The notes: generated from the letters alone by a model not told the origin. DNA of 64,000 bases from Candidatus Levyibacteriota bacterium (GCA_041906785.1 JAYRIM010000029.1:1149-65148), one strand, 5' to 3'; counted from the stretch's first letter, positions 2,525-20,793 are shown. Numbers and translations: made by a program.

Positions 2525-2570
2525 AGATACTCTCATTGACTCTATTCAATGATTTTGAAATACTAGATTT

Positions 2571-3842: not shown

Positions 3843-4417
3843 ATAGGATCATCTTTTAATTTTAGTAGATAACCAATATATGTAACCCCAAGGTGTAACG
3901 CAAAAAAAAGTATAAATGCAAGAATATAAAAGGAGAGCGATAACCGGATATAAAAAAAGCTAAAAAATATTGCTCCCAGAATATAATCAATTTGGTCGAA
4001 CGGAAACCAGGCTTTTCCGGGTGCTCTACCGAGTTGCCGTTTAAAAAAACTTTTCACTGCATCCCCTACTAATGCGCCAAAACTGAGTAAAAAACCTAAG
4101 GCAATTGGGTGTGCTGGTAAGGCTGCAAAAAATTTTGGCGTAATCAAAGATTGAAGCACCGCAATAAGCATACCAACTAATGTACCTCCCACGAGTCCTC
4201 TCACAGTTTTATGCTCTCCAAAAATACGTATATCTCGAAATGTTTTATAAAAATCTAATGGATACGAATAAGTTTCTAAAAAGGAAATTTTTGCTATAAC
4301 AACAGGTATCATGTTTGCTATTCCAGCAGGAAGAAAAAACCAAAAAGTAAAAAAAATATCCTGAAACATAATATTTTTTCCAAAAAATTGCGCGACCCCG
4401 CTCAGCGGGGGAAGCAA
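3839..4417 (-). CDS. CTP-transferase family membrane protein (CDP-archaeol synthase CarS / DUF46-like, or a short CdsA-like cytidylyltransferase)
   Basis: 192 aa. It contains HKTVRGLVGG and GDAVKSFFKRQLG, matching the KTxEG and GDxxxSxxKR signatures. The first 16 codons lie in a GC-rich hairpin, so the true start is probably the internal Met (MFQDIFF) near 4369. Confidence 0.6.
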   Translation of the reverse strand: MLPPLSGVAQFFGKNIMFQDIFFTFWFFLPAGIANMIPVVIAKISFLETYSYPLDFYKTFRDIRIFGEHKTVRGLVGGTLVGMLIAVLQSLITPKFFAALPAHPIALGFLLSFGALVGDAVKSFFKRQLGRAPGKAWFPFDQIDYILGAIFFSFFYIRLSLSFYILAFILFFALHLGVTYIGYLLKLKDDPI

Positions 4418-4434
4418 TCTCTCAATTCAAAACT

Positions 4435-4505
4435 GTCATGCTGAGCGTTAGCGAAGCATCTTTCTCAAAGATCCTTCTCCCGATTTGCATCGGGATCAGG
4501 ATGAC
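4435..4505. repeat. Palindromic intergenic element, family A (GTCATNCTGAGC...TCAGGATGAC), copy 1
   Basis: Reads gtcatgctgagcgttagcgaagcatctttctcaaagatcctt...atcaggatgac. Related copies sit at 11156, 31617 and 44756. Confidence 0.7.
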
Positions 4506-5416
4506 AAATTGAATGCAATCGTCGGCGATGTTTTATCAATATGTTTATTATAAAGAAACGTTATTTTCTTTTTCAGTATTTCTATTTCTACACCTTTCCG
4601 CTGTAAAACAGGATCGCCATCTACTTGTACAAACGGCTCACCTTCTATACGAATATGAGATGCTTTAAAATGCACTTTCCCCACTCTCGAATATAGTGGG
4701 TGTCTAAAACCGCGTAAGCGAAGATTACGAATATACGCATATTTCGTTGAGAAAACAGTACAATCAAGAAACCCATCATTTAGTTTTGCTGCAGATGCTA
4801 CGAGATAATTCTGCCCGAGAATCGGTCCATTGGCTACCATTAATGACGAAACAGTTGCGTTTAATGTAACTGCATGGTCTATCGTAAATGTAATATCTCT
4901 ATGTGGATGTTTTACGACGCTATGAAGTGCTGCAAATATATAAGAAGGAAGACCAATATACTGATTTTTATTTCGGTCATGAACAATACGAGCATCAAAT
5001 CCGGCGCTGATATTAAATAAACCGATAGGAAAATCGGGAAGATTTGTCCTCATTACATCGATTGTAACTGAAGGAGAAACATGTTGAATCGTTTGTAATG
5101 CTTTTTCAATTGTATCAACACCAAAACAGTATGCCATAGCATTTCCAAACCCTAACGGAATAACTGCAAGTGTCGGTTTTTGTTTTAATGGTAGAACTGC
5201 CCCAGCGACTTTCGTGATAGTCCCATCTCCCGCAGCAATAACAATGAGAGAAGGGTTTTTCTGTTTTAGAAACGATGAAATATCACCTATCTGAGAAAAA
5301 TCATAGGCATTTTTCTTTATAAACGGATGTGTTGCAACAATTTTCTCCCAATTTTTCTTTGCTTTTCCCTGATTTGAATAGGGATTGTATAAGTATAAAA
5401 TGTTTTTATATTTCAT
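4496..5416 (-). CDS. Diacylglycerol-kinase catalytic-domain lipid kinase (YegS/BmrU family)
   Basis: 306 aa. LIVIAAGDGTITKVAGAV is the DAGK_cat GGDGT-type motif, and overall length and architecture fit the family. Confidence 0.75.
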   Translation of the reverse strand: MKYKNILYLYNPYSNQGKAKKNWEKIVATHPFIKKNAYDFSQIGDISSFLKQKNPSLIVIAAGDGTITKVAGAVLPLKQKPTLAVIPLGFGNAMAYCFGVDTIEKALQTIQHVSPSVTIDVMRTNLPDFPIGLFNISAGFDARIVHDRNKNQYIGLPSYIFAALHSVVKHPHRDITFTIDHAVTLNATVSSLMVANGPILGQNYLVASAAKLNDGFLDCTVFSTKYAYIRNLRLRGFRHPLYSRVGKVHFKASHIRIEGEPFVQVDGDPVLQRKGVEIEILKKKITFLYNKHIDKTSPTIAFNLSS

Positions 5417-5519
5417 TTTAAATTGTCTTATTATTATATTGCTATATTGTTACCTTCTCCCAAAAGGAGAAGGTTGTGATGAGGGAACAATATAAAAATA
5501 TAACAATATAACAATTGTT

Positions 5520-6179
5520 TTATAATCTCATTCTTTTTCTCAGCCGATTATATAACGGCGACATATATGAGAAAACAGAAGGATGTTCTTCTTTCAGATC
5601 TGCATGCAAAAGTAAATTTACAAGATTTTTTTTCGTTACTTTTTCTGAAACCATACTATATGCAGATCCTAATCCGATAAACCCATGAGCATCACTGCTC
5701 GCAGCACATGCTTTAGTATGTTGTTTAGCCAGATTTAATGCTTCCATATTTTTCCATCGACCAAAGGCTCTCGCGTTAAAAACCTCGATAATATCGATAT
5801 CAAATATAAGATGCTCTAGTGTATTTTTCTGTAATCCTTTTCTCACTTTTTCAAAAGGATGAGGAATATATACCAAACCTTCCTGCTCGTGAATGTTATA
5901 GATCGTTCGTTCTACAGATAAACCTGGTTTAATTAAGGTTTCTAAAAAAAGCCCTATGATCTCTCCTTCTTCTGTCATGATTTCTTCGCCAACGATAATC
6001 GAATCACCATGTTTTTTATGCAATTCCTGAGCAAATAAAATCTGATTATGGTCTGTTATGGCTATATAATCGAGTAAACCGGATGTAATAGCTCGCTCAT
6101 AACTTTCAACAGAAATTCCACCGTCATGTGAAGATATAGAATGCGTATGAAGATCAATGGTATACTTATGCTTAATCAT
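5520..6179 (-). CDS. PHP-domain phosphoesterase
   Basis: 219 aa. The N-terminal IDLHTHSISSHDGG is the PHP metal-binding motif. Confidence 0.75.
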   Translation of the reverse strand: MIKHKYTIDLHTHSISSHDGGISVESYERAITSGLLDYIAITDHNQILFAQELHKKHGDSIIVGEEIMTEEGEIIGLFLETLIKPGLSVERTIYNIHEQEGLVYIPHPFEKVRKGLQKNTLEHLIFDIDIIEVFNARAFGRWKNMEALNLAKQHTKACAASSDAHGFIGLGSAYSMVSEKVTKKNLVNLLLHADLKEEHPSVFSYMSPLYNRLRKRMRL

Positions 6180-6774
6180 GTTAACTGTAAAAAAATCGCT
6201 GGTTGAGCAATATACGAAAAGAATTGCTGTTTATTTCCCTAATACTAACCCAAATACTATTACAATACTAGGTCTCCTCTTCCCTTTTCTTTTTTTCTTT
6301 TTTCTGGTCACGAAACAGTATCTTTTCGCACTCGTGATTTTTCCGGGAAATGCGTTCGATATGCTCGACGGCGCTATAGCGCGCTTATATAAAAAAACCA
6401 CAGCTTTTGGTGCACTTTTAGACTCCACATTAGATCGACTATCTGATGGTTTAATCATTAGTGCATTTGGATTTGCACAAATTGTAAGATGGGAAATTAT
6501 TATCCCGTTACTCGTTACATCATATCTTATTAGTTATATCCGTTCCCGAGCAGAGCTGGCAGCAGAAAAGAAAATTTCTTTAGCGGTAGGATGGGTTGAA
6601 CGGACAGAACGGCTCATCTTCCTTTTTCTGGCTCTTCTGTTTTTTATCCTCTTCCCAACCTTTTCCTTCTTATCATTCAATAGCGCGGAAGATATACTGA
6701 TTCTTCTTACAATCTTTTCAATTTTTACTGTCTATCAAAGAATGAACTTTGCAAAAAAAGAATTATCCAGATAA
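6157..6774 (+). CDS. CDP-alcohol phosphatidyltransferase (PgsA-like)
   Basis: 205 aa. DMLDGAIARLYKKTTAFGALLDSTLDRLSD is the D-G-x2-A-R-x8-G-x3-D-x3-D signature. The start probably lies at the second Met (about 6178), because the listed start overlaps the divergent PHP gene. Confidence 0.75.
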   Translation: MVYLCLIMLTVKKSLVEQYTKRIAVYFPNTNPNTITILGLLFPFLFFFFLVTKQYLFALVIFPGNAFDMLDGAIARLYKKTTAFGALLDSTLDRLSDGLIISAFGFAQIVRWEIIIPLLVTSYLISYIRSRAELAAEKKISLAVGWVERTERLIFLFLALLFFILFPTFSFLSFNSAEDILILLTIFSIFTVYQRMNFAKKELSR

Positions 6775-6863
6775 TAGTTTCGCTTTTGATACATTTGATA
6801 CTTTTTCTATTTTTCTTTCGTCTTGACATTTTAGCCTTCTAGTGAAATACTCAGCCTACAAAA

Positions 6864-7595
6864 ATGGGTGCATCCAAATCGCTACTTTTTATAATTGGGC
6901 TAATAGGATTAGTAATCATATTATTTCTTGGTTTTTATATTGGGATTCAATATCAAGAAAGAATAACGAAAGAACGACTAGAGAACTCAACACCGACAGT
7001 GACACCGAAGCCGACCATCACGCCGACGCCCACACCAAAACCTTCTCCTACTCCTAGCCCCTTTCCAGGAGGAGTAACAAATAACGATGAATCCACAGTC
7101 GTTTTCGAATGGGCTACCTATGTAAACACGAAACATAAATATACAGTAACCTATCCGAAAACATGGAGTATTGATACGAGTGAAGCAGATAAAGAAGAAG
7201 ACTTCACAGATGGATCATGTTGTAATTCGGCAAAACTGCGTTTATTAAATAAGCATGTACTATGGGAATTCGTTGTTAATCCATCACCAGTTGTTAATAT
7301 AGGCCCGAAAGAATGCAAGTCGAGTAAAGTCGTATGTGATTTTACAAATACACCGATAAAAGTTATGGGTCTACAATTACAACGTACCATTATCCGATTA
7401 AAAAAGCCTAATAAGATTCTGGAGGCGTATATCAGTACTCCAGGGAAAGGTGAAGGGTTCGGCCAGGTCGGAATCACAAATCAATTTACTACTCCAACGC
7501 AAGTAAAATATACTTTAAATTATTATGGAGATTCTATGGATAAATACATGATGATTCTCGATACGATCACCGAAAACCTCCAACCCACACCATAA
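6864..7595 (+). CDS. Hypothetical membrane-anchored protein with a PT-rich linker
   Basis: 243 aa. TM helix followed by TPKPTITPTPTPKPSPTPSP and a Cys-containing domain. Confidence 0.5.
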   Translation: MGASKSLLFIIGLIGLVIILFLGFYIGIQYQERITKERLENSTPTVTPKPTITPTPTPKPSPTPSPFPGGVTNNDESTVVFEWATYVNTKHKYTVTYPKTWSIDTSEADKEEDFTDGSCCNSAKLRLLNKHVLWEFVVNPSPVVNIGPKECKSSKVVCDFTNTPIKVMGLQLQRTIIRLKKPNKILEAYISTPGKGEGFGQVGITNQFTTPTQVKYTLNYYGDSMDKYMMILDTITENLQPTP

Positions 7596-7753
7596 CTCTT
7601 CTATTATAGGTTGCCTTCTCTACAATTCTTTGCTATGATCAGGAAGCCTCTTTATTGACAAGACCTCTATAGGTTTATTGTGGGTAAAAAGGCATTGCTC
7701 TTTAATACTGATGGATTTACGTTTCGGAATACAGGCTCTATGGGAAGAAAAAA

Positions 7754-7846
7754 GTTTCCAGTTTCTAATTTCGAATTTCCAATTAGTTACAAGTTTATGA
7801 ATTAATAAATTAATTGGAAAATGGAGATTCGAAATTGGAAATTTCT
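7754..7846. repeat. ~90-bp palindromic element, family C (TTTCCAATT / AATTGGAAA arms), copy 1
   Basis: gtttccagtttctaatttcgaatttccaattag...ctaattggaaaatggagattcgaaattggaaatttc. It is internally palindromic and about 75% identical to the copy at 15229-15316. Confidence 0.7.
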
Positions 7847-7947
7847 CTTTCTTTAGAGCTTGTGTTCCAAGGGTGCAGGGACCCAGGGAATAGCTCGAGA
7901 CAGTCACCGTTGACTATCAGATCTAGACCATAGAAAGGGTTAGTGAT

Positions 7948-8355
7948 ATGACAACCTCAACAACTGAGGAACCTGCCGATCGCACAGGTGACGGCGAACC
8001 CGCTGATAAGCCCATCGCTAGCGCGATGGCAACGGACGGAGAGACGACCGAATACTGGATGCTCGGCCGCAATTGGGTAGCCGAGCGCTGTGAGTTCGCC
8101 TCCACTTCCACTTGCCGTGCTGTACTGTTTGCCTGGAATGGCTTCGGTTCGCTGACACGCGTTCGCGTGGAACTTCCAGAAGGCTATGCCGACTACCGTT
8201 CGGGCCAACCGCCGGTGTTCAAAGGGTTAGGCAGCGCACTCGCTCTCTTCCCGCCGGCTCTCTCAGCAAGGGTACAAGAACTCCTGGGCGTTCCGCTCCC
8301 ATGGCAGATTGATTTTGGGCGTGCAGCCCAACTCGTCTACGACTCTCGTCGGTAA
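7948..8355 (+). CDS. Hypothetical protein in a GC-rich island; coding status uncertain
   Basis: 135-aa ORF whose composition is very unlike the neighbouring genes. The RBS is weak and no family was recognised. Confidence 0.3.
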   Translation: MTTSTTEEPADRTGDGEPADKPIASAMATDGETTEYWMLGRNWVAERCEFASTSTCRAVLFAWNGFGSLTRVRVELPEGYADYRSGQPPVFKGLGSALALFPPALSARVQELLGVPLPWQIDFGRAAQLVYDSRR

Positions 8356-8504
8356 GCATCTCTATCCCGCAAGTTCATCAGTAAAGCACCGTGAATCGGT
8401 GCAGAGAGGAGGTCGCATGGCCTTTTACCCCCGATGTACTTCGGGGGATGAAAAAGCCACTGTGGCCACCCCTGCTACCCACGGTGCTTTTTCATGGAAA
8501 AAAA

Positions 8505-8930
8505 TCATGGTTTTAAAAACATCGGCCATTGGCCATTCAGACATTTACTAAATCCCATCTTCTCAAAAAATACATCCTTATCCGTAATTGCTAGTACCTC
8601 ATAAATTTTCTTTTCTGTTGCTTCTCGTACACAGGCATTGACTAACTGTCTTCCTATACTTTTTCCTTGATATTGCGGAGTAACAACTAATGACCGAATC
8701 TCAGCAAGCTTGGGGCTGTAAATCTCAAGAGAACAGCAACCTACCACCTTCCCATCTGTTTCAAAAACATAAAAATTTTTAATAACCTTTTTAATCTCAT
8801 CTTTTGATCGAGGAAGAACTTTTCCATTCTTCGCAGCAAAGGAAATAAGTGAAAAGACGAAATCTATATCTTCAATAGTATTCTTTGCTTTACGTAACAT
8901 ATTGTTCAGTATACCGTATATTTTTTCCAC
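8505..8930 (-). CDS. GNAT-family N-acetyltransferase
   Basis: 141 aa. VTPQYQGKSIGRQLV (acetyl-CoA binding motif A) and the core GNAT fold pattern are present. Confidence 0.8.
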   Translation of the reverse strand: MEKIYGILNNMLRKAKNTIEDIDFVFSLISFAAKNGKVLPRSKDEIKKVIKNFYVFETDGKVVGCCSLEIYSPKLAEIRSLVVTPQYQGKSIGRQLVNACVREATEKKIYEVLAITDKDVFFEKMGFSKCLNGQWPMFLKP

Positions 8931-8960
8931 GAAAAAGCCGCCTCTCTCCAGAAGGCGGCT
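8931..8960 (-). terminator. Rho-independent terminator following the GC-rich gene 8985-9269
   Basis: On the minus strand the sequence reads AAGCCGCCttctggagagaGGCGGCTT, followed by TTTTT. Confidence 0.55.
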
Positions 8961-8984
8961 TATGATTGAAGCGATTGATGGATG

Positions 8985-9269
8985 CTAATAAATTCTGTGA
9001 CGACTTGTTGCCGGTTTGGCCACCGGCTGCCAGTCCCGCAAATGCGGAAACTGACAATAAAATGACTCTAGAGCCTGCTGGTAGCTGCCGCTTTCTAAAG
9101 CATTCAACGGCGTGCCATCGAGGTTTTGAACCTCCTTAGTCAACCATTGAATCAGTTCAGGCGTTTCCCCGAGAGCAACAACTCTCTCCAGTAACGCCAA
9201 GGCGAATGTGTCATTTGCCTCTGCCAGCAACTCGATAACTCGAACAAATGGATCCATAGTGCTCTCCAT
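8985..9269 (-). CDS. Hypothetical protein, GC-rich composition
   Basis: 94-aa ORF with its own downstream hairpin and U-tract. No family was recognised. Confidence 0.35.
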   Translation of the reverse strand: MESTMDPFVRVIELLAEANDTFALALLERVVALGETPELIQWLTKEVQNLDGTPLNALESGSYQQALESFYCQFPHLRDWQPVAKPATSRHRIY

Positions 9270-9524
9270 GAAGTAGTAGCAGCTATACGTTCCTCTAACG
9301 TAAGCTGCAGAAAAGAAAAGATGAAATCATTTCCTCTTCTCCTTCATGCAACCTACGGCTTGTATAACATCCATTGGATATCAAAGATCAATCTCCCTTT
9401 TACCGCGAGAAACGGGTTTAAACCATAATGAATGAGCGCTAAATGCTCATTTTATTTGGCAGAAACCCTGGCAGCATAACAAAGATTAACTGAAAAGTCA
9501 AAACTATAAGATTACCTGTATTTT

Positions 9525-9971
9525 TTATAAAAATACTTCTACTCTTTTATCAAACTTTGCATTTGGGTCGAGGATATAGAAATGCTCAGGAATAATTTTA
9601 AAAAATCGATATGGGGCTTTTCCTGAAAATGATTTCCTCGTCATCGGCATAAAAGAAGTGTAGTACCAGCACATAGCGGCATCAATTTCTTTTTCTGGTA
9701 GAAGATACGCTTTTCCTGAACACTGTACACCATTTCCTGTTCCTTCTTTTTGTGTGGAATCGAAAATTGTAAAAGAAACATTTGGATTTTTTAAGATGTT
9801 CTTCGAATGCACAGAATCTAATTGAGACGCGAAATAAAAGGTAAACGTATTACTTACACCATAATACACAGGTGAAACCCAGACATGTTCCCTACCATAT
9901 GTACCAAGCGTCAGATAGTCATTCTTTCCTATTATTTTTCTGGCTATTACAGCCAATGATTTTTTATTCAT
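9525..9971 (-). CDS. Pyridoxamine-5'-phosphate-oxidase-like FMN-binding protein (general stress protein 26-like)
   Basis: 148 aa. DYLTLGTYGREHVWVSPVYYG and the overall split-barrel pattern fit the family. Confidence 0.5.
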   Translation of the reverse strand: MNKKSLAVIARKIIGKNDYLTLGTYGREHVWVSPVYYGVSNTFTFYFASQLDSVHSKNILKNPNVSFTIFDSTQKEGTGNGVQCSGKAYLLPEKEIDAAMCWYYTSFMPMTRKSFSGKAPYRFFKIIPEHFYILDPNAKFDKRVEVFL

Positions 9972-10036
9972 ATTGTCTTCTTGGTATCCAACCTACCTGC
10001 CCGCATTGCTACGCAAAGCCTTGCAGGCGGGCAACC

Positions 10037-10084
10037 CACGACACTTCGCAGAAGTTAGTCCCCATGTGGGACAACTCATAACTA
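10037..10084 (+). repeat. Conserved 45-nt motif, family D, copy 1, upstream of the TrmB-like gene
   Basis: cacgacacttcgcagaagttagtccccatgtgggacaactcataact. It is near-identical to the copy at 22191-22245 and contains a GTCCC..GGGAC hairpin. Confidence 0.6.
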
Positions 10085-10127
10085 ATGCCGTCACTTTACC
10101 TTATTCCATCCATACTGTAAAATTGTT

Positions 10128-10973
10128 GTGCTAATAGTGAACAACTCATCACATACGAATATTGCTCTTATTAAAGAATTTCTCGGAAAACTAGGTTTCT
10201 CTGAGGAAGAAGTAAAGCTTTATATCACCTTAACGCAGAAAGGACCACTTACGCTTCTTGAGGCTTCCCGTGCTAGCGGTATAGAACGCACTAAAATCTA
10301 TCGTATGATTGATGACTTAAAAGAAAAGAAGCTTCTGGAAGAGATTCCACAGTATAAGCGAACAGTTATTAAAGGAGCAGGCTTACAAACTATAGAATTA
10401 CTCGTAAAGGAAAAAGAGTTAGAAAATAAATTTCTTCAGAATAATGCTGCAACCTTTACTCACGCGGTTAATGTACTGACTAAATCGCTTCCTGAAAATA
10501 ATGTTATTTACTACCGTGGTGTTGAAGGAATTCGCCAAATGACATGGAATATGCTCAGATGTAAAGGACTATTTCGAACATATTCCTGTAGCTTTTGGAA
10601 TGATATTCTCGGTGATTCGTTCGTGGATGAGTTAAATAAAGAATTATTGGCGAGACATTTTAGTGTTCATGATCTTTACTCTGACCAATATATCGAGTTT
10701 AAGAATCAATGGATGAAGGAAAAAGGCGGAAAGCCCAGTGGAGATTGGCATTTCTGGCATTCTCGATATATATCAGAAAAAATTGTAAAGATTAATCAGA
10801 ATATTGACATATATAATAACGTAGTTTCTTACTACTACTGGCAAGGAGAAGAAACGTTCGGAGTAGAAATTTATAATCAACGTATTGCGGATATGCAAAA
10901 ACAAATTCATGATGTTCTCTGGAAAATGGCGAAAAGAAGAAAAGAACTTGATTGGACAATAGACTGGAAATGA
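10128..10973 (+). CDS. Putative HTH transcriptional regulator (TrmB-like N-terminus)
   Basis: 281 aa. The N-terminal LYITLTQKGPLTLLEASRASGIERTKIYRMIDDLKEKKLLEE resembles a TrmB-type winged helix. A GTG start is implied. Confidence 0.45.
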   Translation: MLIVNNSSHTNIALIKEFLGKLGFSEEEVKLYITLTQKGPLTLLEASRASGIERTKIYRMIDDLKEKKLLEEIPQYKRTVIKGAGLQTIELLVKEKELENKFLQNNAATFTHAVNVLTKSLPENNVIYYRGVEGIRQMTWNMLRCKGLFRTYSCSFWNDILGDSFVDELNKELLARHFSVHDLYSDQYIEFKNQWMKEKGGKPSGDWHFWHSRYISEKIVKINQNIDIYNNVVSYYYWQGEETFGVEIYNQRIADMQKQIHDVLWKMAKRRKELDWTIDWK

Positions 10974-11155
10974 GCTTATAGTTTTGATTTTTACTTCGAT
11001 TTTCAGTATAATCCTCTGATTCTCTCAGTAAGACCTAGAAGTAAAAGATTTTCTATGATTTTTTTCTCCTGAGTCTTACTCAGGTCGGATTCTATAGGAA
11101 TTCCGGCCATTTTTCGCGGCCGCTTTTTCTTATTAAGGTCCGTTTGCTCTTCACT

Positions 11156-11216
11156 GTCATTCTGAGCAAAGCGAAGAATCTTTACTTTAAGGATCCTTCA
11201 CTTCATTCAGGATGAC
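11156..11216. repeat. Palindromic intergenic element, family A, copy 2
   Basis: gtcattctgagcaaagcgaagaatctttactttaaggatccttcacttcattcaggatgac. Confidence 0.7.
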
Positions 11217-11466
11217 AACAAGAAGACAGAACCTTAACAAGAGAGAGTGAGAGCGGACTCCGATGCATATCGGAGGAGCTCGCCTACAGTCCGCCAGCTG
11301 GCGGATCGACAGACGTGTGTGCCGCATCTTCAATCTAACAAGTATCCCTCAAAGAAGAGGGTCTGCAGTTGCCGTAAGGCGACCTATAGATGGTGGCCGT
11401 TAGAGAAACGTTTATTCAACAGCTCTCACGGAAACTACCGTGAGAGCCCATCACAAGGAGTCAACT

Positions 11467-12591
11467 ATGTATTTGTTTCACATCCTCGCGGAGACGCTCC
11501 ACCGGTTCTTCCGGTGGCTCCGCGACCTGGAGTGGGAACGGCTTGGCATAATCGCCATCCTTTTCCTGCTCCTCGGCTGGATTGTCTTACGCGTGCTCGC
11601 TTGCGGGCAACCCGCCAGCGCCCACGCCGCTCAAGCCACCCTACAACCGAGTGAGAACACCCTCGTTCTGTGGTTCAATGAAGAACACATGACGGGTCAG
11701 GTTCTTTACCCGGAAGGCGGCAGTGTCCGGGCAAAAATGGTCGCAGTGAACTTAAACCCGGACCTCGAAACGATTGCACTTGAGGCTGAGATCGATTCCG
11801 CTCGCCCAGAGTCCCTTTTGTGGCGCGCAGGGTTACAGCCTTTCACTGTCGGCAACCGCCATATTATCCCCCAAACTGGCGACTATGTGAATTTCGTCGT
11901 CGCTACCTGGAACGAGGTAGCCGGTCGTTGGGAACCGGTTATCTACACCACGGTTCAACTCACTGGCAAAACTCATGTTCTCCAATTCCTACTGGAGAGT
12001 GAGATATCCGGCGAGTTGCCATTCGAGGACAATCCTGAACCAACCACGCCTCCCAATCCGGTCGAAAACTTGTTAATCAACTGCGACTTCTATCGGGTTG
12101 CTAACAACCCATACGGAGACTCAGGTTTTTGGCAAGTAAACATCCGGGACAGTTTCGGCGAGTTAGTTAGCTCAATGACGAGCGACTCGTCGGAAGCACC
12201 CCAGCATTCGTTCACAAACGCTGAGCTGGAACGGCTCGTATTTAGCCGCGTGTCGTATGAATACGTCTGGCAGTTGAACCACAACACACTTCCCTTGAAG
12301 TGGAGCCTCGCGTTCGAGTTCAGGGCATGCGTCTCTCCGATTCCGACGGAAACACCAGGGTTATCCCCGACCTTGACGCCCACGCCAACACCAGGGTATT
12401 TGCTCTACGCACCCTACATCTCGCGGGCGAGTATCGGTGGCAGACGACCGGCGCCGACGCCGGACATGCCACGGATCACGCCTGGCGTCATTTTGAGTAT
12501 GACGGCTGCGGCGGTGACGCCAAAGCCGACCTTCACGCCCACACCGCTGGCAATTTTGCCCCCAGCGCCCGAGCCAACAAGGACTCCTTAA
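11467..12591 (+). CDS. Hypothetical membrane-anchored protein with a Pro/Thr-rich C-terminus, encoded in a GC-rich island
   Basis: An AAGGAG Shine-Dalgarno sits 7 nt upstream of the ATG at 11467. There is a TM helix (IIAILFLLLGWIVL) and a C-terminal TPTPTP / PKPTFTPTP repeat. A hairpin follows at 12597-12633. Composition is far more GC-rich than neighbouring genes. Confidence 0.45.
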   Translation: MYLFHILAETLHRFFRWLRDLEWERLGIIAILFLLLGWIVLRVLACGQPASAHAAQATLQPSENTLVLWFNEEHMTGQVLYPEGGSVRAKMVAVNLNPDLETIALEAEIDSARPESLLWRAGLQPFTVGNRHIIPQTGDYVNFVVATWNEVAGRWEPVIYTTVQLTGKTHVLQFLLESEISGELPFEDNPEPTTPPNPVENLLINCDFYRVANNPYGDSGFWQVNIRDSFGELVSSMTSDSSEAPQHSFTNAELERLVFSRVSYEYVWQLNHNTLPLKWSLAFEFRACVSPIPTETPGLSPTLTPTPTPGYLLYAPYISRASIGGRRPAPTPDMPRITPGVILSMTAAAVTPKPTFTPTPLAILPPAPEPTRTP

Positions 12592-12596
12592 CTATC

Positions 12597-12633
12597 ACCC
12601 ACCCCACGCTTAGGAGGAGCGTGGGGGTGGGCC
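12597..12633 (+). terminator. Strong GC hairpin after the GC-rich gene; no clear U-tract
   Basis: CCCACCCCACGC-ttaggaggag-GCGTGGGGGTGGG. Confidence 0.3.
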
Positions 12634-12771
12634 CTTTCGGGGGTACAGTAACCTCCTCTCACTCTCTCTCATAATAACAATTTGACCCCACTTCGCTAAA
12701 GCTTCGCGGGGCAAGCAAATTAACTATTTCAAATTTATTGTTTCTCCTTAATAACTTACACTACTAAACTA

Positions 12772-12791
12772 ATGTCCAATATACTGGACAT
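12772..12791. promoter_or_regulatory. Operator-like palindrome upstream of a candidate promoter
   Basis: ATGTCCAatatacTGGACAT has 7-bp perfect arms. It is followed by ttgtat (12799-12804), an 18-nt spacer and tataat (12823-12828), ahead of the gene at 12846. Confidence 0.35.
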
Positions 12792-12845
12792 CAAATATTT
12801 GTATTTTTTTATTGTGCCGTTATATAATCCTGCTATACTCTTCTT

Positions 12846-13334
12846 GTGAATTCGCAAGCAGAACAAGAAATACTTCTTAAAATTGTCGAGACATGGAACC
12901 CTAGCATGAAACCAGAATATCGTGGATTTCGTTGTGCGAATTGCCAGAAATATAAAAACGAAGCTTGGTATCACTGGGTACATACTGGAGGGTATCGTCT
13001 CCCTATCCACATGTGTACTGATACGTGTGAACCACAATTCCAAAATGGAACGATAAATATAGACGAATCAAAAAGAAAACAGGTCATTAGAGAAGAATTC
13101 AATCCCACCTATTCTGAAAAAACTGAAAAACGATTTGATGAAATAATCGCTTCTTGGCCAGAATATAAAAAGCCAGAGTTAAAAGCGTATACATGTGATG
13201 AATGCGAACAAGATTTAGATATAGACACAGATGTACAAAGAAAAGGCTGGCATGTCTGGTATAAAATGCCTGATGACTTTACTCTCGCCGAACTCCACTT
13301 CCACAAATCCTGCGCAAAAAAAATAGGATTATAA
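12846..13334 (+). CDS. Hypothetical Cys-rich protein, possibly zinc-binding
   Basis: 162 aa. Paired CxxC motifs occur (CANCQ..., CDECEQ). The listed start is GTG. Confidence 0.4.
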   Translation: MNSQAEQEILLKIVETWNPSMKPEYRGFRCANCQKYKNEAWYHWVHTGGYRLPIHMCTDTCEPQFQNGTINIDESKRKQVIREEFNPTYSEKTEKRFDEIIASWPEYKKPELKAYTCDECEQDLDIDTDVQRKGWHVWYKMPDDFTLAELHFHKSCAKKIGL

Positions 13335-13341
13335 TAACTTC

Positions 13342-14058
13342 ATGCGACAATTTACTTATTCTTTCTTTCAATCTTCATTTCGTTCTGTTCCTGAAGTTAT
13401 ACAACACATGGAACAACTACAGATAGAGTTGAAGAATACTGATTTAGAACATGTCCGTGCGTTTAATAAGACCTATCTGATAATCACCAAGAATGTTTAT
13501 AAAAAAATTGGTACTGGATACTTCCAGTTCGATGATGTCATGACAGCAGTAGACATTAACTTCGCTTCTTACTATTTCCGTGCACTGAAATCATATGTTG
13601 AAAAGAAAAGAACACCTCCAGCCTGGGAAATATCATTCGATGCTTCTAAAAGAAATAATTATTATCAATTCATATACATGGCATTAGGTGTAAATGCGCA
13701 TGTAAATAATGATTTAGCGCAATCACTCCATGATGTAGTTAAAGATGAAACATATAAAGGGGATTTTAATAAAGTAAATGCCATAATTCACGAAAGTATT
13801 CCGGAAGTAATCAAAGGCTTGCAAGAAAGCTCCTCCTCACTCGCATTATTAGAAAAAATATTTCTTCCCGTATACACATTTTTTTTAGATGCATTAATCC
13901 AAAACTGGCGTTCCGATACATGGAACACTTTTTTAGCACTTAAAAAGAAAATAGCTACTGTCCACCAAGTAGAAAATAAAGCAGAAAAACTCGCTGTTCA
14001 GCTTAGTAAAATAAAACGACTAAGAGATATTCGTCACTTACGAAATGTCTTCATGTAA
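13342..14058 (+). CDS. Hypothetical protein
   Basis: 238-aa ORF with native codon usage. No family was recognised. Confidence 0.5.
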   Translation: MRQFTYSFFQSSFRSVPEVIQHMEQLQIELKNTDLEHVRAFNKTYLIITKNVYKKIGTGYFQFDDVMTAVDINFASYYFRALKSYVEKKRTPPAWEISFDASKRNNYYQFIYMALGVNAHVNNDLAQSLHDVVKDETYKGDFNKVNAIIHESIPEVIKGLQESSSSLALLEKIFLPVYTFFLDALIQNWRSDTWNTFLALKKKIATVHQVENKAEKLAVQLSKIKRLRDIRHLRNVFM

Positions 14059-14065
14059 TTTCCAC

Positions 14066-14107
14066 AACTCATAACTCATAACTCATAACTCATAACTCAT
14101 AACTAGC
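14066..14107. repeat. Heptamer tandem repeat, (AACTCAT)x5
   Basis: aactcataactcataactcataactcataactcataactagc, immediately after the stop codon of the preceding gene. Confidence 0.8.
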
Positions 14108-14294
14108 AATTATGCTTCCTATTACAAACTTATAACACTTCTCTGTTTGCCTTCACACAACAGTTTTGTAGTATGCGAATTACTACGAATTGTATCCTAA
14201 TTGATCCGAATAGAAGAAATATTCGTAACAATTCGGATTACAAGTTACTATTTATATTTGGATCAATTCGTAGCTTGGAAGGGGGGTGAGAAAC

Positions 14295-14606
14295 ATGCCA
14301 GAACAAGCCAAAAAATCAAATATGAATAAAGGGAAAACAGAAAAAAAAGGACGAAAAGGAGGAATTAGTGGAATCGCTGCTCCAGCTACCGGTGCAGTTA
14401 TAGGAGCTGCTATAGGAGGAGTAGCAGGATCGATGCTCTCATCCAGAGAAGGTAAAAAAGTCCTTGGAACAGTCGCTGATTCAGTTAAGGAAATTGCTGA
14501 AGACACTATAGAAGCTGTTGAAGAAAACAGGACGCAAGTTGAAAAAACTGCAAACAGTATAACTTCTTCAGTAGCAGAGAAATCTTCAGGTAAGAGTGGA
14601 AAATAA
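14295..14606 (+). CDS. Small glycine-zipper protein
   Basis: A GGAAGGGGGG Shine-Dalgarno precedes the ATG at 14295. The protein has a GxxxG-rich helix (IAAPATGAVIGAAIGGVAGSM) and a Lys-rich N-terminus. Confidence 0.5.
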   Translation: MPEQAKKSNMNKGKTEKKGRKGGISGIAAPATGAVIGAAIGGVAGSMLSSREGKKVLGTVADSVKEIAEDTIEAVEENRTQVEKTANSITSSVAEKSSGKSGK

Positions 14607-14765
14607 TGGGAACTTCGGGGGAGAAGTTCGGCATCAGCCAGCTGATCGCTGCGGAGACGTCATGCGTCTCGGCATTGTCAGCAACTGCTGCCTAGTTTTC
14701 TCCCCCTCGGGGTGCAATCACGATTGATCTGATACTCAATATAACGTTGGATAGATGCCGGCTGC

Positions 14766-15236
14766 TCAGCCGGCTCTGTTGCGAACGGCAGGCGCCTTCC
14801 AAGCGGGGATGGCTGTGGAAGCCACAGCCCCGCAGCCGCGGGCAATAACGGTGTACACACCGTTTTGCCGCAGACCAGCGACGCTGATACTGACTCGGCT
14901 GCCATTCTGAGTCACCGCGTTTGCCGAACTCAAAACCGGCACGCTGATCGTGACAGCAGGTTTCTTACTCGGGCAATTGCTCACGGTGACGGTCACGGTG
15001 GCAGTTGTCTGCCCACGAGTGACTGCAATAGCGATGGTCACGTCATTGCCCGTCTCGCGGTCTGTCGCGACTTGGACGACCGATTCCTCGGAGATGATCT
15101 GGCTAGCGTGAGCGCTGCTAGCCTGTGTGAACAGCCCCACCAGCACCATGGCCAGCAGGGCGAGTTTATAAAATTGTCTCACTAGTACCCTCCTTGTGAT
15201 TGCGAACCCAGGCAAGAGAAAACGAAGAGTTTCCAA
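14766..15236 (-). CDS. Hypothetical secreted protein encoded in a GC-rich island
   Basis: A signal-peptide-like segment (LALLAMVLVGLFTQASSAHA|SQ) is present. Composition is GC-rich and no family was recognised. Confidence 0.4.
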   Translation of the reverse strand: METLRFLLPGFAITRRVLVRQFYKLALLAMVLVGLFTQASSAHASQIISEESVVQVATDRETGNDVTIAIAVTRGQTTATVTVTVSNCPSKKPAVTISVPVLSSANAVTQNGSRVSISVAGLRQNGVYTVIARGCGAVASTAIPAWKAPAVRNRAG

Positions 15237-15316
15237 TTTCGAATTGCCAATTTCCAGTTAATTTTTAATTAATGAATTCACCACTAATTGGAAACTGGAA
15301 AATTGAAATTCGCAAC
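15229..15316. repeat. ~90-bp palindromic element, family C, copy 2
   Basis: gtttccaatttcgaattgccaatttccagttaatttttaattaatgaattcaccactaattggaaactggaaaattgaaattcgcaac. Confidence 0.7.
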
Positions 15317-15579
15317 TGCCTAAAAGGCTCCTTTCTGGGTGCGCAATAGATTGTTAAAGTACCAAAAAATTGTTATATTGTTAAATTGTTTTTTTATTGT
15401 TTAATAATATAGCAATAGAACACTATAACAATAGTAGATAATGTCTTTATAACACAAATCGGAAGTATACCACAGAAAACATAATTTGTCTACTATAGGC
15501 CTTAACTGCGATACGCATATTGTGTAGCTCAAAACGCAATTAATCAACTTACTGATAACCGATAACTGACTACTGACAA

Positions 15580-17688
15580 CTATTTTGATGGTATTGTGAA
15601 GCAAAAAAGCGCACCTTGATCTTTCTCACTTTCTACCCATATTTTGCCTTTATGCCTTTTAATAATATCTGCTGATACATACAATCCTAATCCCAAGCCA
15701 GGGAATGTATCTTCTCTATTACCACTGACACGGAAAAACCGTTCGAAAATATGTTTTTGTAATTCTTTTGGTATGCCCACACCATAATCCCGCACACATA
15801 CTTTTGTTTCCTCGTCTGTCTGTATAACAGAAACATCGATTTTCTTTGCATCAGGAGAATATTTAATTGCGTTTGATAAGAGATTCATAAGAACCTGGCC
15901 GATTCGCTCTCTATCTCCAAACACTTTTCGTCTTGCATTTCCCTCAACTGAAATTCGATGTTTATCAGTCGTTCTCTGCATTTCTTCAATAGTTTCTTTC
16001 GTAAGGGAGTTGATATCAAATTGTTCAAATTTCATTGAAAGTCTTCCAGACTCAATTTTCGTTACATCAAGTAAATCCTTAATAAGATTAGTTAGCTTCG
16101 TAAGCTGTAGATCCATTTTCTTTAATTGTTCTGCTGTCTCTATATTCCCCTGTTTTTGAAACCTGCGGGTTAATACTTGTACATACGCTTTTAAGCTCGT
16201 TACTGGAGTTTTCAATTCATGACTCGCTATGCTGATGAAATCATCTTTCTGACGTTCAAGTTTTTTCCGTTCTGTAAGATTAATGACTAAACCGATTATT
16301 TGGCCTTTCTTTCCTTCTGTAAACGTTTTTCCGATTAGCACAGGAACTCTCGAACCATCTTTTCTAAGATATTCTTTCTCATACGGTGTATGAAAACCTT
16401 TTTTATGTAATTCTCGTAATTCCTCACGATATTGGTCGTGATATTCATGTGGAGTTATATTGGCAATAGTAATTTCCCGTTTGCGTAGGTCACGTTTCGT
16501 GAGTTTTACCATCTCTAAAAAAGCCTTATTCGCATTGGTAATAACACCATCTGCATCTGCAAAAAACACACCAATTATATTCGCATCGACTATACGTCTA
16601 AGTCGTGTTTCACTTTCCTGAAGTGCAACCTGAGAATTTGATAACTCCTCAGCAAGTTTTTCTGCTTTAACCCGAGCTACATACTGCCAGTGACTTAATC
16701 CGAACAATGCTAAGCTTGTAAAAATTCCTCCAGCTAAAAGAAACGGTACGAGACTTCTTTCAGTGGAATAAATAAAATAGCGTGTTTGAGCAAAATAAAG
16801 TGTCCAGGTCCTCCCAGCAATACTGAAATTGCGAACAACACTCTCCTTGGCAGGTGATTTATCAACATCTGCGTTAGTAAAAAGTAAAGCATTTCTATAT
16901 GGTTTCGTTCCATCGTAAATATACATGTCTGCATCTGATTGTGTATCATGACCGAAAATACTATAAAAAAAATCGTTGGCACGAAATGGTCCATAGACAT
17001 AGCCATATAATAATTCCTTTCTTTCAGTAATAGTACTCGGAGTTGTACCTCCAAAATATACAGGCATATAAATAAGAAACCCTGGCTGTTTATTAGTAGT
17101 TATTTCCTGCACAAGAGTAACGATACCCGAAATGGTTGGTTGACCAGTCTCCATGGCCTTTTGCATTGCGTCACGCCGTGTTCTTTCAGAATACATATCA
17201 AAACCTATAGCTTTCTTATTCCGATCATCAAATGGTTCTAAATACTTTATAACATGATAGACATCTCGCTCATCATCAGGATAAATAGTAAAATTTTCAT
17301 ACCCTTCTTCCTCCATCAACTCAATAAACTCTTGTTTTTTATCGCTAGAAAAACGCTCTGAGAAACCTATTCCTTGAATGCCGTTATACCGGCTACGAAG
17401 CTCTAAATGTGAAGCGAAACTATGAAACTCATTACGAGTAATATATTGTTGTGACGAGAACATTCCAGCCCCAGCTCGTAACATAGCAATATATGTATCT
17501 AACCGTTTATCAATCGCCTCAATTCTTCTTGTTACTATCCTATCGAAGTACAGTTTATCTTTACTGTCAGCAACACGATCGATATAGAATGCTGCTAAAA
17601 ATGTTGTTAATAAACCCAATATAAAAATCGATAGAGGAAATAATGGACGTGAACGGTAATGATGTGTATGAAACCTACGTAATCTCAT
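15580..17688 (-). CDS. Sensor histidine kinase (TM, large extracytoplasmic sensor, PAS, HisKA, HATPase_c)
   Basis: 702 aa. H-box SHELKTPVTSL, N-box NLLSNAIKYS, G1 DYGVGIP and G2 GLGLGL are all present. A PAS segment (IVDANIIGVFFADADGVITNANKAFLEM) is seen. The N-terminal TM helix is followed by a ~300-aa periplasmic region that may be CHASE-like. Confidence 0.85.
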   Translation of the reverse strand: MRLRRFHTHHYRSRPLFPLSIFILGLLTTFLAAFYIDRVADSKDKLYFDRIVTRRIEAIDKRLDTYIAMLRAGAGMFSSQQYITRNEFHSFASHLELRSRYNGIQGIGFSERFSSDKKQEFIELMEEEGYENFTIYPDDERDVYHVIKYLEPFDDRNKKAIGFDMYSERTRRDAMQKAMETGQPTISGIVTLVQEITTNKQPGFLIYMPVYFGGTTPSTITERKELLYGYVYGPFRANDFFYSIFGHDTQSDADMYIYDGTKPYRNALLFTNADVDKSPAKESVVRNFSIAGRTWTLYFAQTRYFIYSTERSLVPFLLAGGIFTSLALFGLSHWQYVARVKAEKLAEELSNSQVALQESETRLRRIVDANIIGVFFADADGVITNANKAFLEMVKLTKRDLRKREITIANITPHEYHDQYREELRELHKKGFHTPYEKEYLRKDGSRVPVLIGKTFTEGKKGQIIGLVINLTERKKLERQKDDFISIASHELKTPVTSLKAYVQVLTRRFQKQGNIETAEQLKKMDLQLTKLTNLIKDLLDVTKIESGRLSMKFEQFDINSLTKETIEEMQRTTDKHRISVEGNARRKVFGDRERIGQVLMNLLSNAIKYSPDAKKIDVSVIQTDEETKVCVRDYGVGIPKELQKHIFERFFRVSGNREDTFPGLGLGLYVSADIIKRHKGKIWVESEKDQGALFCFTIPSK

Positions 17689-17751
17689 GTCAAAAAGTGT
17701 GGCTATTGTAGCATAAAATACCGAAGAATCTAATAACCTATCTTACGGATA

Positions 17752-18399
17752 TTATTTCAATTTTTTAAATTGATAACTCCAGACTGCCAAACAAGCAAAA
17801 GCAGAACCGAGTAATGCCCCACCAATAATATCGGTAAACCAATGTTCCCCAAGATATACTCGAGAAAGCAACATAATACAATCAAACATTATAATCATGC
17901 CCGTGATAATAAGCTTCACTTCCTTCGATACCCTTTTACTTTGCCAAATCAAAAGAATAAGCAGTACAGATAAAAATGTTGTCCGCCCACTATGACCAGA
18001 AGGATATGAATATTCTGCGCGTACATGAAACTCCGGAAATTCTTCAACTCGCTTGGTACGCAACATAAATTCTGGAGGCGGAAGGTTTTCAACAACATTT
18101 TTTCCAAATATTTCAATCATGTGAAATAAAGCAAAAAGTAAGAAAGTTATCAGACCAGCAAAAATTTTTCTGTTCGCAATAATAACAATAAGCAGAATAA
18201 TTGTGAGTACTTCAAACGTACCAAAAAAACTAAACCATGAAAATGGATCATCGAATCGACGAGGAATGTTGTTCTGTAAACGAACTGTCGTATCAAAATC
18301 AAGTTGTTTAAAAATATTTTTATCAACCAGAAATGAAAAGAGAATAAAAAAGAAGAAAAGCATCAATCCACTCATGAGCATCACAAATCGCGGTTTCAT
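17752..18399 (-). CDS. PAP2-family phosphatase (undecaprenyl-diphosphate / phosphatidate phosphatase-like)
   Basis: 215 aa with multiple TM helices. PAP2 motifs YPSGHSGR and SRVYLGEHWFTDIIGG are present. Confidence 0.75.
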   Translation of the reverse strand: MKPRFVMLMSGLMLFFFFILFSFLVDKNIFKQLDFDTTVRLQNNIPRRFDDPFSWFSFFGTFEVLTIILLIVIIANRKIFAGLITFLLFALFHMIEIFGKNVVENLPPPEFMLRTKRVEEFPEFHVRAEYSYPSGHSGRTTFLSVLLILLIWQSKRVSKEVKLIITGMIIMFDCIMLLSRVYLGEHWFTDIIGGALLGSAFACLAVWSYQFKKLK

Positions 18400-18415
18400 T
18401 CTCGTATCATAGCAT

Positions 18416-18790
18416 TCAACGAATATTTTCTCTATGTGAAGGAGAATATTTATTTGCGATAAATGAAATTGCTCTATCTGTCGAAGTCGTAGTTTTACTA
18501 AACCCTTCTAAAGATTCACCCGTCTCAGCAACAAAGATATCTACAATACCTGCACCTAAACGAACTGCTACAGAGAGATCTTGCCTTCTGATATGATCAA
18601 TACCCCTACGTAAATCACTTGTCGAATCTGAAAAATCATGTACATATGGATTGATACCTTTTTCTCCCGGACGACTCCCTACTACTGTCACTTGCATAAC
18701 TTTAGGTGTACCTTCGGCAGGGACCTCTCCGATAACTTCGAAGTCATCATAAACAGTATGATCGTATAATGGATATTCTGGAGTTGCCAT
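18416..18790 (-). CDS. YbjQ/DUF74 (UPF0145)-like small protein
   Basis: 124 aa with weak pattern similarity (AVRLGAGIVDIFVAETGES) to the YbjQ family. Confidence 0.35.
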   Translation of the reverse strand: MATPEYPLYDHTVYDDFEVIGEVPAEGTPKVMQVTVVGSRPGEKGINPYVHDFSDSTSDLRRGIDHIRRQDLSVAVRLGAGIVDIFVAETGESLEGFSKTTTSTDRAISFIANKYSPSHRENIR

Positions 18791-18808
18791 AGCATGTTCG
18801 GCAGGTAG

Positions 18809-19708: not shown

Positions 19709-19764
19709 TACTTCGCATTATATATCATAAAAACTTTTTTTGTCCAATCCCATTTTGCTTCCTC

Positions 19765-19794
19765 TTTACATTCCATCCTGTAATTTGGTAAAAT
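19765..19794 (+). promoter_or_regulatory. Sigma70-like promoter for the secE-nusG-rplKA unit
   Basis: TTTACA, an 18-nt spacer, then TAAAAT, about 70 nt upstream of secE. Confidence 0.45.
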
Positions 19795-19828
19795 GCAACA
19801 AGCTTTTCAGTTACTATTCTCGGTATTG

Positions 19829-19862
19829 CTGACTACCGACAACTGATAACTGACAACTGTAA
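19829..19862. repeat. Heptamer-periodic tract (TGACTAC CGACAAC TGATAAC TGACAAC)
   Basis: 7-nt periodic NGAYAAC units lie immediately upstream of the secE start codon. Confidence 0.6.
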
Positions 19863-19865
19863 TGT

Positions 19866-20048
19866 ATGGTCACACCACTAAAATTCCTCATCGAAACTAA
19901 AGATGAATTACAAAAAGTAGTATGGCCATCACGACAAGACGTAATACGCTTAACATTTATCGTTATTTTTGTTAGCGCTTTAGTAGCATTTTATATAGGG
20001 GCGCTAGATTTCGCTTTTGCGAAAATCACAGAAACATTATTAAGATAA
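19866..20048 (+). CDS. secE: Preprotein translocase subunit SecE
   Basis: 60 aa with a single C-terminal TM helix (LTFIVIFVSALVAFYIGALDF). Its position immediately upstream of nusG is the conserved one. Confidence 0.75.
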   Translation: MVTPLKFLIETKDELQKVVWPSRQDVIRLTFIVIFVSALVAFYIGALDFAFAKITETLLR

Positions 20049-20096
20049 TCACAAGTCATAAGTCTACTTAGGACTTATAACTTGTAACTTACTATT
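20049..20096. repeat. Heptamer-periodic tract (AAGTCAT AAGTCTA ... CTTATAA CTTGTAA CTTACTA)
   Basis: Periodic 7-mers between the secE stop and the nusG start. Confidence 0.5.
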
Positions 20097-20675: not shown

Positions 20676-20793
20676 TTAGTTAAAAGTTCAAAGTCAAAAG
20701 TGTAAAGTAAATAAGGAAACTACAAATGATTCCTTATATTACTTTTAATTTTTCATTTTTAACTTTTAATTTGACTGACTGAAAGGAAGGAAC

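Follow-up and report, generated by a model that had tools for sequence, protein, structure and literature searches.

GC-rich single-gene modules interleaved with native genes in a variable region of an AT-rich CPR chromosome

Bacteria of the candidate phyla radiation (CPR; Patescibacteria) have very small genomes and are believed to rely on other cells. In general, orphan genes and acquired DNA tend to be richer in AT than the host genome. We analysed a stretch of 64,000 nucleotides (nt) from a genome recorded as a Candidatus Levyibacteriota bacterium (GCA_041906785.1, JAYRIM010000029.1:1149-65148; hereafter the window), in which four short GC-rich blocks, numbered 1, 2, 4 and 5, alternate with AT-rich native genes along 7.4 kb bracketed by two palindromic elements, P1 and P2. 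Each block contains one open reading frame (ORF), called gc1, gc2, gc4 or gc5 after its block. Genomic islands and competence-mediated uptake of DNA have already been documented or proposed for Patescibacteria (PMC12455944).

Genomic islets and plasticity zones share with this locus an atypical composition, sharp borders, orphan accessory cargo and a setting in a variable region, and no integrase is present here. The locus differs from them in that it consists of four single-gene pieces of 0.4-1.4 kb, which are interleaved with native genes and lie about 20 GC points above the host. We favour, with moderate confidence, the interpretation that single-gene islets, each acquired independently from an unsampled, GC-richer pool associated with the lineage, are clustered here in a variable part of a CPR chromosome.

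Four GC-rich blocks in an AT-rich chromosome

In 200-nt sliding windows, three stretches (about 7900-8500, 11200-12700 and 14600-15200) reach a GC content of 0.55-0.63 and a fourth (8940-9300) about 0.50, compared with 0.37 elsewhere in the window. These rises mark four blocks of 50-60% GC (about 7850-8500, 8931-9300, 11240-12669 and 14607-15225; the full modules are given in Table 1), all of them placed in intergenic spacers, with no native gene broken. At most block borders the shift is complete within 40 nt or less; block 2 is milder, at about 50% GC, and its right edge is gradual. No other block of more than 55% GC and longer than 500 nt occurs in the 64 kb. The first-pass annotation had counted five GC-rich segments. 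Sliding-window GC bears out four of these, whereas the remaining one (9990-10040) is part of a native intergenic repeat of about 100 nt with two small hairpins and other copies at 22191-22240 and 60472-60521. The AT-rich genes said to lie between the segments are indeed there: those for the GNAT, PNPOx-like, TrmB-like, Cys-rich, DUF5995 and YtxH-like proteins.

GC content at third codon positions (GC3) is 0.65 in gc4, 0.66 in gc5, 0.58 in gc1 and 0.53 in gc2, compared with 0.21-0.31 in eight native genes. Across the three codon positions (GC1/GC2/GC3), gc4 reads 0.57/0.47/0.65 and gc5 0.59/0.54/0.66, which is the pattern of a genome of 55-60% GC; gc2 is intermediate (0.57/0.39/0.53). We considered a large non-coding RNA or an intron (group II intron, riboswitch or OLE/GOLLD-type RNA) and rejected it: Rfam gave no match at the gathering threshold across the window, a relaxed search (E <= 5) over 7500-15700 returned only hairpin-type microRNA and weak small-RNA chance matches, and the codon-position GC of gc4 and gc5 favours coding. 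Outside the locus, a 235-nt GC-rich spacer (45847-46081, minus strand) between an alpha-amylase-family gene and a trehalose-phosphatase-like gene has a fold z of -5.67 and no Rfam match at E <= 1, and is a candidate undescribed cis-regulatory RNA.

Besides its single ORF, every block has a GC-rich terminal hairpin, and the two that had been proposed as terminator-like, at 8931-8960 and 12597-12633, prove real by RNA folding. The strong Shine-Dalgarno (SD) motifs of gc4 and gc5 stand in an identical 11-nt context (ATCACAAGGAG). The N-terminal transmembrane (TM) helix of gc4 is predicted with confidence, the whole protein reaching a predicted local distance difference test (pLDDT) score of 39 in an AlphaFold model made without an alignment. 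Both gc4 and gc5 look secreted or membrane-anchored.

The junctions are supported by a second assembly. Three Logan contigs (run SRR26835457) are 100% identical to the window over 1-10063, 10034-13958 and 14077-21275; they cross all eight GC/AT junctions and both palindromes unbranched and break only at native repeats, namely the 10037-10086 repeat and the AACTCAT array. Because the contigs of a second assembler match every junction at 100%, an assembler artefact is excluded for practical purposes, in agreement with the initial suggestion that the mosaic is not a chimera. In a chimera of assembly or binning, GC-rich fragments of another organism would have been joined to CPR sequence through low-complexity repeats common to both. 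Shared k-mers of this sort exist in principle, since unrelated contigs, AT-rich as well as GC-rich, carry identical 27-nt heptamer arrays, and the Logan contigs derive from one run, whose reads may also underlie the genome record. But such an origin needs eight exact joins, all intergenic, each enclosing a complete ORF with start, stop and hairpin; the independent contigs pass through all of them, and a heptamer array lies near only two of the eight. We regard a chimera as extremely unlikely.

When 1.84 billion cluster representatives were scanned in full with HMMER, gc1, gc2, gc4 and gc5 matched nothing but themselves, and the four proteins have no significant match in Pfam, PHROG, NCBIfam or the PDB. 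Scans of IMG/VR proteins found no relatives of the block proteins, and comparison of the blocks with phage and plasmid DNA (blastn) gave no match. A word-indexed search with the four proteins concatenated also found no relative, but it missed even the self match of gc1 and is unreliable. Native and orphan proteins alike are singletons at 90% identity. 'Orphan' here means having no relative closer than about 35-40% identity; the database-wide scan missed a homologue of gc2 in the nearest relative of this genome. The donor lineages that the first-pass annotation suggested seeking for each GC-rich segment were thus looked for in both DNA and protein; no donor was returned, and the sole homologue comes from a sister CPR genome.

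The host is an AT-rich, ultra-small, Woesebacteria-like CPR bacterium, and window GC is 38% overall and 37% once the enriched stretches are set aside. Proteins related to the TrmB-like one lie in metagenome-assembled genomes named Patescibacteria or Candidatus Woesebacteria and CPR-like low-GC contigs (three under other names). The window holds ordinary chromosomal content: nusG-rplK-rplA, rplJ-rplL, mreB, lipid and glycan enzymes, an ABC transporter and a sortase. No tRNA gene was found in it. The rplK-rplA / rplJ-rplL cluster, normally contiguous, is split by about 9 kb (22220-30865) that contain five large ORFs, four of them without a Pfam match.

Related genomes and the gc2 pair

The nearest relative, GCA_964512695.1 (L009), whose kinase is 64% identical, was compared over 17.8 kb. 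Its PAP2, kinase, YtxH and DUF5995 genes are contiguous, and the Cys-rich protein (73%) and the secreted protein (66%) are also present; the 17.8 kb contain no block of more than 55% GC and no homologue of gc1, gc4 or gc5. The convergent spacer between the YtxH and kinase genes is 64 nt with a simple hairpin in L009, compared with 973 nt in the window, where it is made up of block 5, P2 and 262 nt of AT-rich DNA. Because the spacer of the relative is only 64 nt, the unit of block 5 and P2 is lineage-specific. In two more distant relatives the spacer after the kinase measures 24 and 239 nt. The 60 nt that follow the secreted-protein gene in L009 include no P-like element.

Between the secreted-protein and Cys-rich genes, the gene content of the window and of L009 is wholly different, and the interval is therefore a variable region. 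Blocks 1, 2 and 4 sit where gene order is not conserved, and absence at an orthologous site is seen for block 5 with P2. Native genes separate block 4 from block 5, and in L009 they keep their order across P2 into the kinase and PAP2 genes. The divergent PNPOx-TrmB pair can be taken as native because it recurs in three other Woesebacteria-like loci. At the L009 locus an rve-family integrase or insertion sequence (IS) gene (17605-17786) ends the variable region, beside the orthologue of the secreted-protein gene, and hints at a general insertion zone in the lineage.

Over 73 residues, gc2 aligns at 33% identity (pairwise E 1e-6) with an ORF of L009 (14554-14823; 89 amino acids, aa). This ORF is the only GC-enriched spot of that locus and has its own GC-rich terminator. 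Its codon-position GC of 0.57/0.41/0.50 is nearly equal to that of gc2, with a GC3 of 0.50 compared with about 0.28 for the genome. Upstream of both genes stands a 23-mer (CCCGTTTCTYGCGGTWAAAGRGA; 9394-9416 in the window) that agrees at 20 of 23 positions, with an alignment score of 31 against a shuffle maximum of 26. The conserved leader of the pair (9340-9482, minus strand; L009:14236-14372) also holds a hairpin that is compensatory at four of seven base pairs, a count drawn from two sequences only. A profile built from the pair found no third member among 5.8 billion clusters.

The divergence of the gc2 pair is far above that of the flanking orthologues, which are 64-73% identical. Because the pair is so far diverged while both genes lie about 20 points over host GC3, a signal that vertical descent in AT-rich genomes should erase, it seems more likely that both genomes drew on the same GC-richer gene pool. 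An early concern was that relatives might carry the same GC-rich genes at the same place. This is seen in part for block 2, whose homologue lies in the same variable region, but the neighbours of the two genes differ.

Palindromes and inverted repeats at the block borders

P1 and P2 had been described as palindromes of about 75% identity, and both stand up as real hairpins by RNA folding (Table 1) that are 75% identical in either orientation. With P1 on the plus and P2 on the minus strand, the two elements stay similar for a further 29 nt on the GC-rich side of the hairpin, to 7870 at P1. Both elements abut GC blocks, gc1 and gc5 read away from them, and it is very unlikely to be chance that both adjoin such blocks within 64 kb. 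The AT-rich leaders upstream of P1 and of P2 show no similarity to each other. Promoter-like sites point through P toward gc1 (7611-7639) and gc5 (15492-15464), in numbers no higher than chance predicts. Beyond P1 and P2, a search for end motifs common to the blocks gave only short, individually non-significant matches.

The first-pass annotation held that each GC-rich segment abuts a P or family-A palindrome and that these palindromes are insertion hotspots. Three of the four blocks do abut a long palindrome, whereas block 2 lacks one. A role as hotspot does not follow from this: heptamer arrays of the kind that form the arms of P are widespread, and P varies together with the GC blocks, being absent from the orthologous sites of L009.

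Tandem-repeat analysis (TRF) finds more than 12 period-7 arrays of differing units in the window, and the majority coincide with boundaries of native genes (for example, nusG, rplK, rplA and mreB). Such arrays lie at 14066-14104, 15551-15581, 19829-19859, 20073-20091, 22134-22165, 60036-60067 and 61231-61263, among other places, and pairs of arrays are inverted around nusG-rplK-rplA (20063-20090 / 22134-22175) and around a 934-aa amylase gene (39970-40014 / 43132-43176). Separately, AT-rich 8-mer arrays of the AACAATAT / TAACAATA type at 5422-5528 and 15348-15432 form an inverted pair with a spacing of about 10 kb and bracket a slightly larger region than the P1-P2 locus.

The heptamer arm pattern matched 89 IMG/VR stretches, including tailed phages of 55% GC in which AT-rich heptamer palindromes stand just upstream of structural genes (portal, head and tail tube; a GH108 endolysin is also present). 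In one such phage contig (L011), palindromes at 2270-2345, 3536-3760, 6188-6262 and 7984-8052 lie upstream of tail tube and head genes and include three tandem 78-nt copies; contigs L060, L050 and L012 can be compared. Many GC-rich viral contigs carry (TTTCNAA)n arrays immediately before start codons. A longer form of the arm pattern was matched in about 14 independent contigs from JGI metagenomes, some of them AT-rich and CPR-like and others GC-rich, again often right before start codons. We considered a phage origin for P1 and P2 and rejected it: the arm order of the phage palindromes is opposite to that of P, the P-specific core pattern has no viral match, and the same array occurs in AT-rich, CPR-like contigs. 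To judge from these patterns, P and the phage palindromes share a repeat vocabulary, not ancestry.

In CPR-like JGI contigs the 27-nt (GGAAATT)n array of P1 and P2 also lies in frame inside long ORFs (L105:8469-8495, L108:3181-3207, and in L120 and L107). One example is a topoisomerase-like protein reading ...RPTDVKLEIGNSKLEIGVDERRLYDLIW..., which recalls in-frame insertions of palindromic elements. In another CPR-like contig, L104, two convergent genes meet at a P-like palindrome, which would act there as a terminator in both directions.

Block 4 ends in a perfect 14/14 inverted repeat (AGAGAGAGTGAGAG; 11240-11253 / 12656-12669). The motif occurs only at these two sites in the window, and its score is reached by 0.2% of random window pairs. 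The block is thus bounded by a repeat of its own, which starts 23 nt after the native family-A palindrome. The GNAT gene is flanked by an 18-nt inverted repeat (8486-8503 / 8921-8938; 17/18) precisely at the GC/AT borders on both sides, with a score that none of 3000 random window pairs reaches. The GNAT start codon falls within this repeat, as do the U-tracts of the terminators of gc1 and gc2; the repeat may represent a junction sequence held in common, the two ends of a small cassette or the borders of an invertible segment. A 14-nt direct repeat flanking block 2 was considered as a target-site duplication and set aside as non-significant (p 0.29).

Table 1. Features of the variable region and its limits (window coordinates; a point marks features without strand)
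Feature	Position	Strand	Description
Secreted-protein gene	6864-7595		Left limit of variable region, precedes P1
P1	7753-7846	.	AT-rich hairpin; arms (TTTCNAA)n / (TTNGAAA)n; RNA fold z -6.8
GC-rich block 1	7847-8503	+	About 56-60% GC; ORF gc1; hairpins 8428-8447 and 8452-8495; ends in left arm of the 18-nt inverted repeat (8486-8503)
gc1	7948-8355	+	135-aa orphan ORF
GNAT acetyltransferase gene	8505-8930	-	Native composition, GC3 0.28; flanked by the 18-nt inverted repeat
Block 2 module	8931-9520	-	Terminator hairpin 8931-8960, ORF gc2, structured 255-nt leader 9266-9520
gc2	8985-9269	-	94 aa, GC 0.50, GC3 0.53; small protein, function not assigned
PNPOx-like gene	9525-9971	-	Native backbone
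Small native repeat	about 9985-10090	.	PNPOx/TrmB spacer
TrmB-like regulator gene	10137-10973	+	Native backbone; divergent from PNPOx-like gene
Family-A palindrome (GTCATTCTGAGC...GAATC type)	11155-11217	.	Native; second copy at 31617-31675 between rplJ and rplL
Block 4	11240-12669	+	1430 nt, 55-56% GC; bounded by the perfect 14-nt inverted repeat
gc4	11467-12591	+	374 aa; N-terminal TM helix, Pro/Thr-rich tail; SD motif AAGGAG; 3' hairpin 12597-12633
Cys-rich protein gene	12846-13334	+	Native backbone
DUF5995 gene	13342-14058	+	Native backbone
(AACTCAT)n array	14066-14104	.	Between DUF5995 and YtxH-like genes
YtxH-like gene	14286-14606	+	Native backbone
Block 5	14607-15227	-	About 58% GC; ORF gc5; 90-nt GC-rich 3' hairpin 14614-14704, z -5.4
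gc5	14766-15185	-	139 aa, GTG start, SD motif AAGGAGG, GC3 0.66; signal-peptide-like N-terminus by eye
P2	15228-15317	.	P1 paralogue, tandem-heptamer arms; RNA fold z -3.4
CHASE histidine kinase gene	15580-17688		Right limit of variable region

Competing explanations and described systems

Under the interpretation that we favour, at least four short (0.4-1.4 kb) one-gene modules of foreign composition would have entered the variable region in separate events. They may derive from an unsampled replicon pool of higher GC, such as phages, plasmids or the host cell of the symbiont, and the divergent, GC-enriched gc2 homologue in the variable region of L009 suggests that this pool is recurrently tied to the lineage. 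DNA would probably have entered by uptake or transduction and been fixed by illegitimate recombination or by small non-autonomous elements, a role for which the terminal inverted repeats of block 4 are suggestive. Spacers beside terminators may be the places where insertions survive, as they do no harm there. P1 and P2 may be either 5' regulatory hairpins brought in with modules 1 and 5 or native bidirectional terminators beside the landing sites.

Several observations weigh against this interpretation. The foreign nature of the blocks is read from composition and from comparison with relatives, no donor sequence having been found, and an excess of 20 GC points over the host is not usual for mobile elements. 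No ORF of at least 130 aa in the window has an integrase, transposase or recombinase domain, and block 4, present once in the window, lacks a target-site duplication. The reading frame of gc1 is ambiguous by codon-position GC. The 'empty sites' of L009 are ancient comparisons, at 64-73% protein identity, and do not date the insertions; and the gc2 homologue could instead mean long residence with GC held high.

That last point also belongs to an explanation that we consider improbable, in which the blocks are old, lineage-specific resident genes whose high GC is maintained by selection, for instance for RNA structure. The matching codon-position profile of the gc2 homologue fits it, as do the strongly structured leaders of gc2 and block 4 (fold z -5.05 and -4.1), and orphan status suits fast-evolving genes of one lineage. 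A GC3 of 0.5-0.66 compared with 0.28 in native genes would, however, be hard to hold by selection over whole ORFs; identity within the gc2 pair is far below that of the flanking orthologues, its two members have different neighbours, and gc1, gc4 and gc5 have no counterpart in the compared part of L009, where the YtxH/kinase junction is empty. Targeted insertion at palindromic hotspots, with a trans-acting recombinase or transposase that reads P-type and family-A hairpins and lands cassettes at a fixed offset, is also unlikely. In its favour, both P copies in the 64 kb directly abut GC blocks, the two blocks lie on the same side once P1 and P2 are brought into the same orientation, with similarity extending past the hairpin, block 4 begins shortly after a family-A palindrome, and the example of L104 indicates that such palindromes can be native. 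Against this, the orthologous junctions of L009 lack P1 and P2, no long palindrome accompanies block 2, inserts are absent from the second family-A copy and from the many other native hairpins and arrays, the window encodes no recombinase and the blocks have no junction motif in common.

A single GC-rich island, transferred once with P1 and P2 as its terminal inverted repeats and later split by rearrangement or by the insertion of native genes, is very unlikely. P1 and P2 do form an inverted pair of 61-67 nt that brackets 7.4 kb, and the highly non-random inverted repeat that flanks the GNAT gene, lying in GC-rich DNA, could mark an insertion or inversion. But each P is itself palindromic, so that an inverted pair follows automatically, and PNPOx-TrmB is a conserved native pair. 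Because the native genes between the blocks keep their order in L009, past the site of P2 and on to the kinase and PAP2 genes, the blocks are not fragments of one island between P1 and P2; here the first-pass annotation, which had proposed several small insertions, holds, as native genes lie both between blocks 4 and 5 and beyond block 5 and all are kept in the relative. To an integron-like array of cassettes (a cluster of attC sites lacking an integrase, CALIN), with the palindromes as attC sites, we give next to no credence. Short and mostly orphan genes, each tied to an imperfect palindrome of 60-95 nt, are what such an array would offer, orphan ORFs being typical of integron cassettes; yet no tyrosine recombinase (IntI) is encoded in the 64 kb, RYYYAAC / GTTRRRY boxes are absent from P1 and P2 by inspection, and the ORFs lie on both strands with conserved native genes between them.

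A more speculative proposal, which we think doubtful, is that modules 1, 4 and 5, and perhaps the GNAT unit, represent an undescribed class of transposase-less, single-gene mobile cassettes of CPR bacteria. Ending in hairpins or inverted repeats (the P-type palindromes, the 14-nt repeat of block 4 and the 18-nt GNAT repeat), they would be moved in trans by an enzyme encoded elsewhere and would carry orphan proteins, destined for the surface or for secretion, back and forth between the CPR chromosome and a replicon of higher GC. If functional, the inverted-repeat ends would define a new minimal cargo-carrying element. More broadly, the locus bears on how CPR bacteria gain genes: here one at a time, from DNA that exceeds the recipient by about 20 GC points, within one variable region and with the gc2 family recurring in the nearest sequenced relative. 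Should a donor be found, be it host cell, phage or plasmid, the inserts would physically link an uncultured symbiont to a partner.

Among described systems, a classical genomic island would bring an integrase and a tRNA gene, neither of which is seen here, and the direct repeat at block 2 does not exceed chance. Phage morons resemble the modules in being self-contained, one-ORF units of deviant GC with their own terminator hairpin, set between intact neighbours, and gc4 and gc5 also have SD motifs; this locus differs in having cellular neighbours, no prophage and no PHROG match. Integron cassettes and CALINs share the short orphan ORFs, each with an imperfect palindrome, but not the mixed orientations, the interleaved native genes or the absence of IntI and of attC boxes. 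Block 4 is comparable to non-autonomous elements with terminal inverted repeats (TIRs) and a passenger gene, as in miniature inverted-repeat transposable elements: its perfect 14-nt TIRs lie exactly at the composition borders and it encodes no transposase. It departs from these elements in its single copy and in having no target-site duplication, and the other blocks have no comparable TIRs. IS110/IS1111-type elements, which target palindromes, differ in that no DEDD transposase is found in the inserts, gc1, gc2, gc4 and gc5 having no significant Pfam or NCBIfam match.

The palindromes have their own parallels. Rickettsia palindromic elements (RPEs) occur in frame inside genes. P1, P2 and the family-A palindrome are, like RPEs and the REP/BIME elements, repeated, hairpin-forming and intergenic, with related arrays in frame in CPR-like genes; they differ from REP-type elements in that P is built from tandem heptamers, not from a REP-type stem. 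As it stands, the locus is of a kind already known, horizontal gene transfer into Patescibacteria, and provides a clean case of horizontal acquisition at an unusually fine grain rather than a new mechanism. Its unusual traits are the complete absence of detectable donors, the gene-by-gene scale, how large the GC offset is and which way it points, and the hairpin and inverted-repeat ends.

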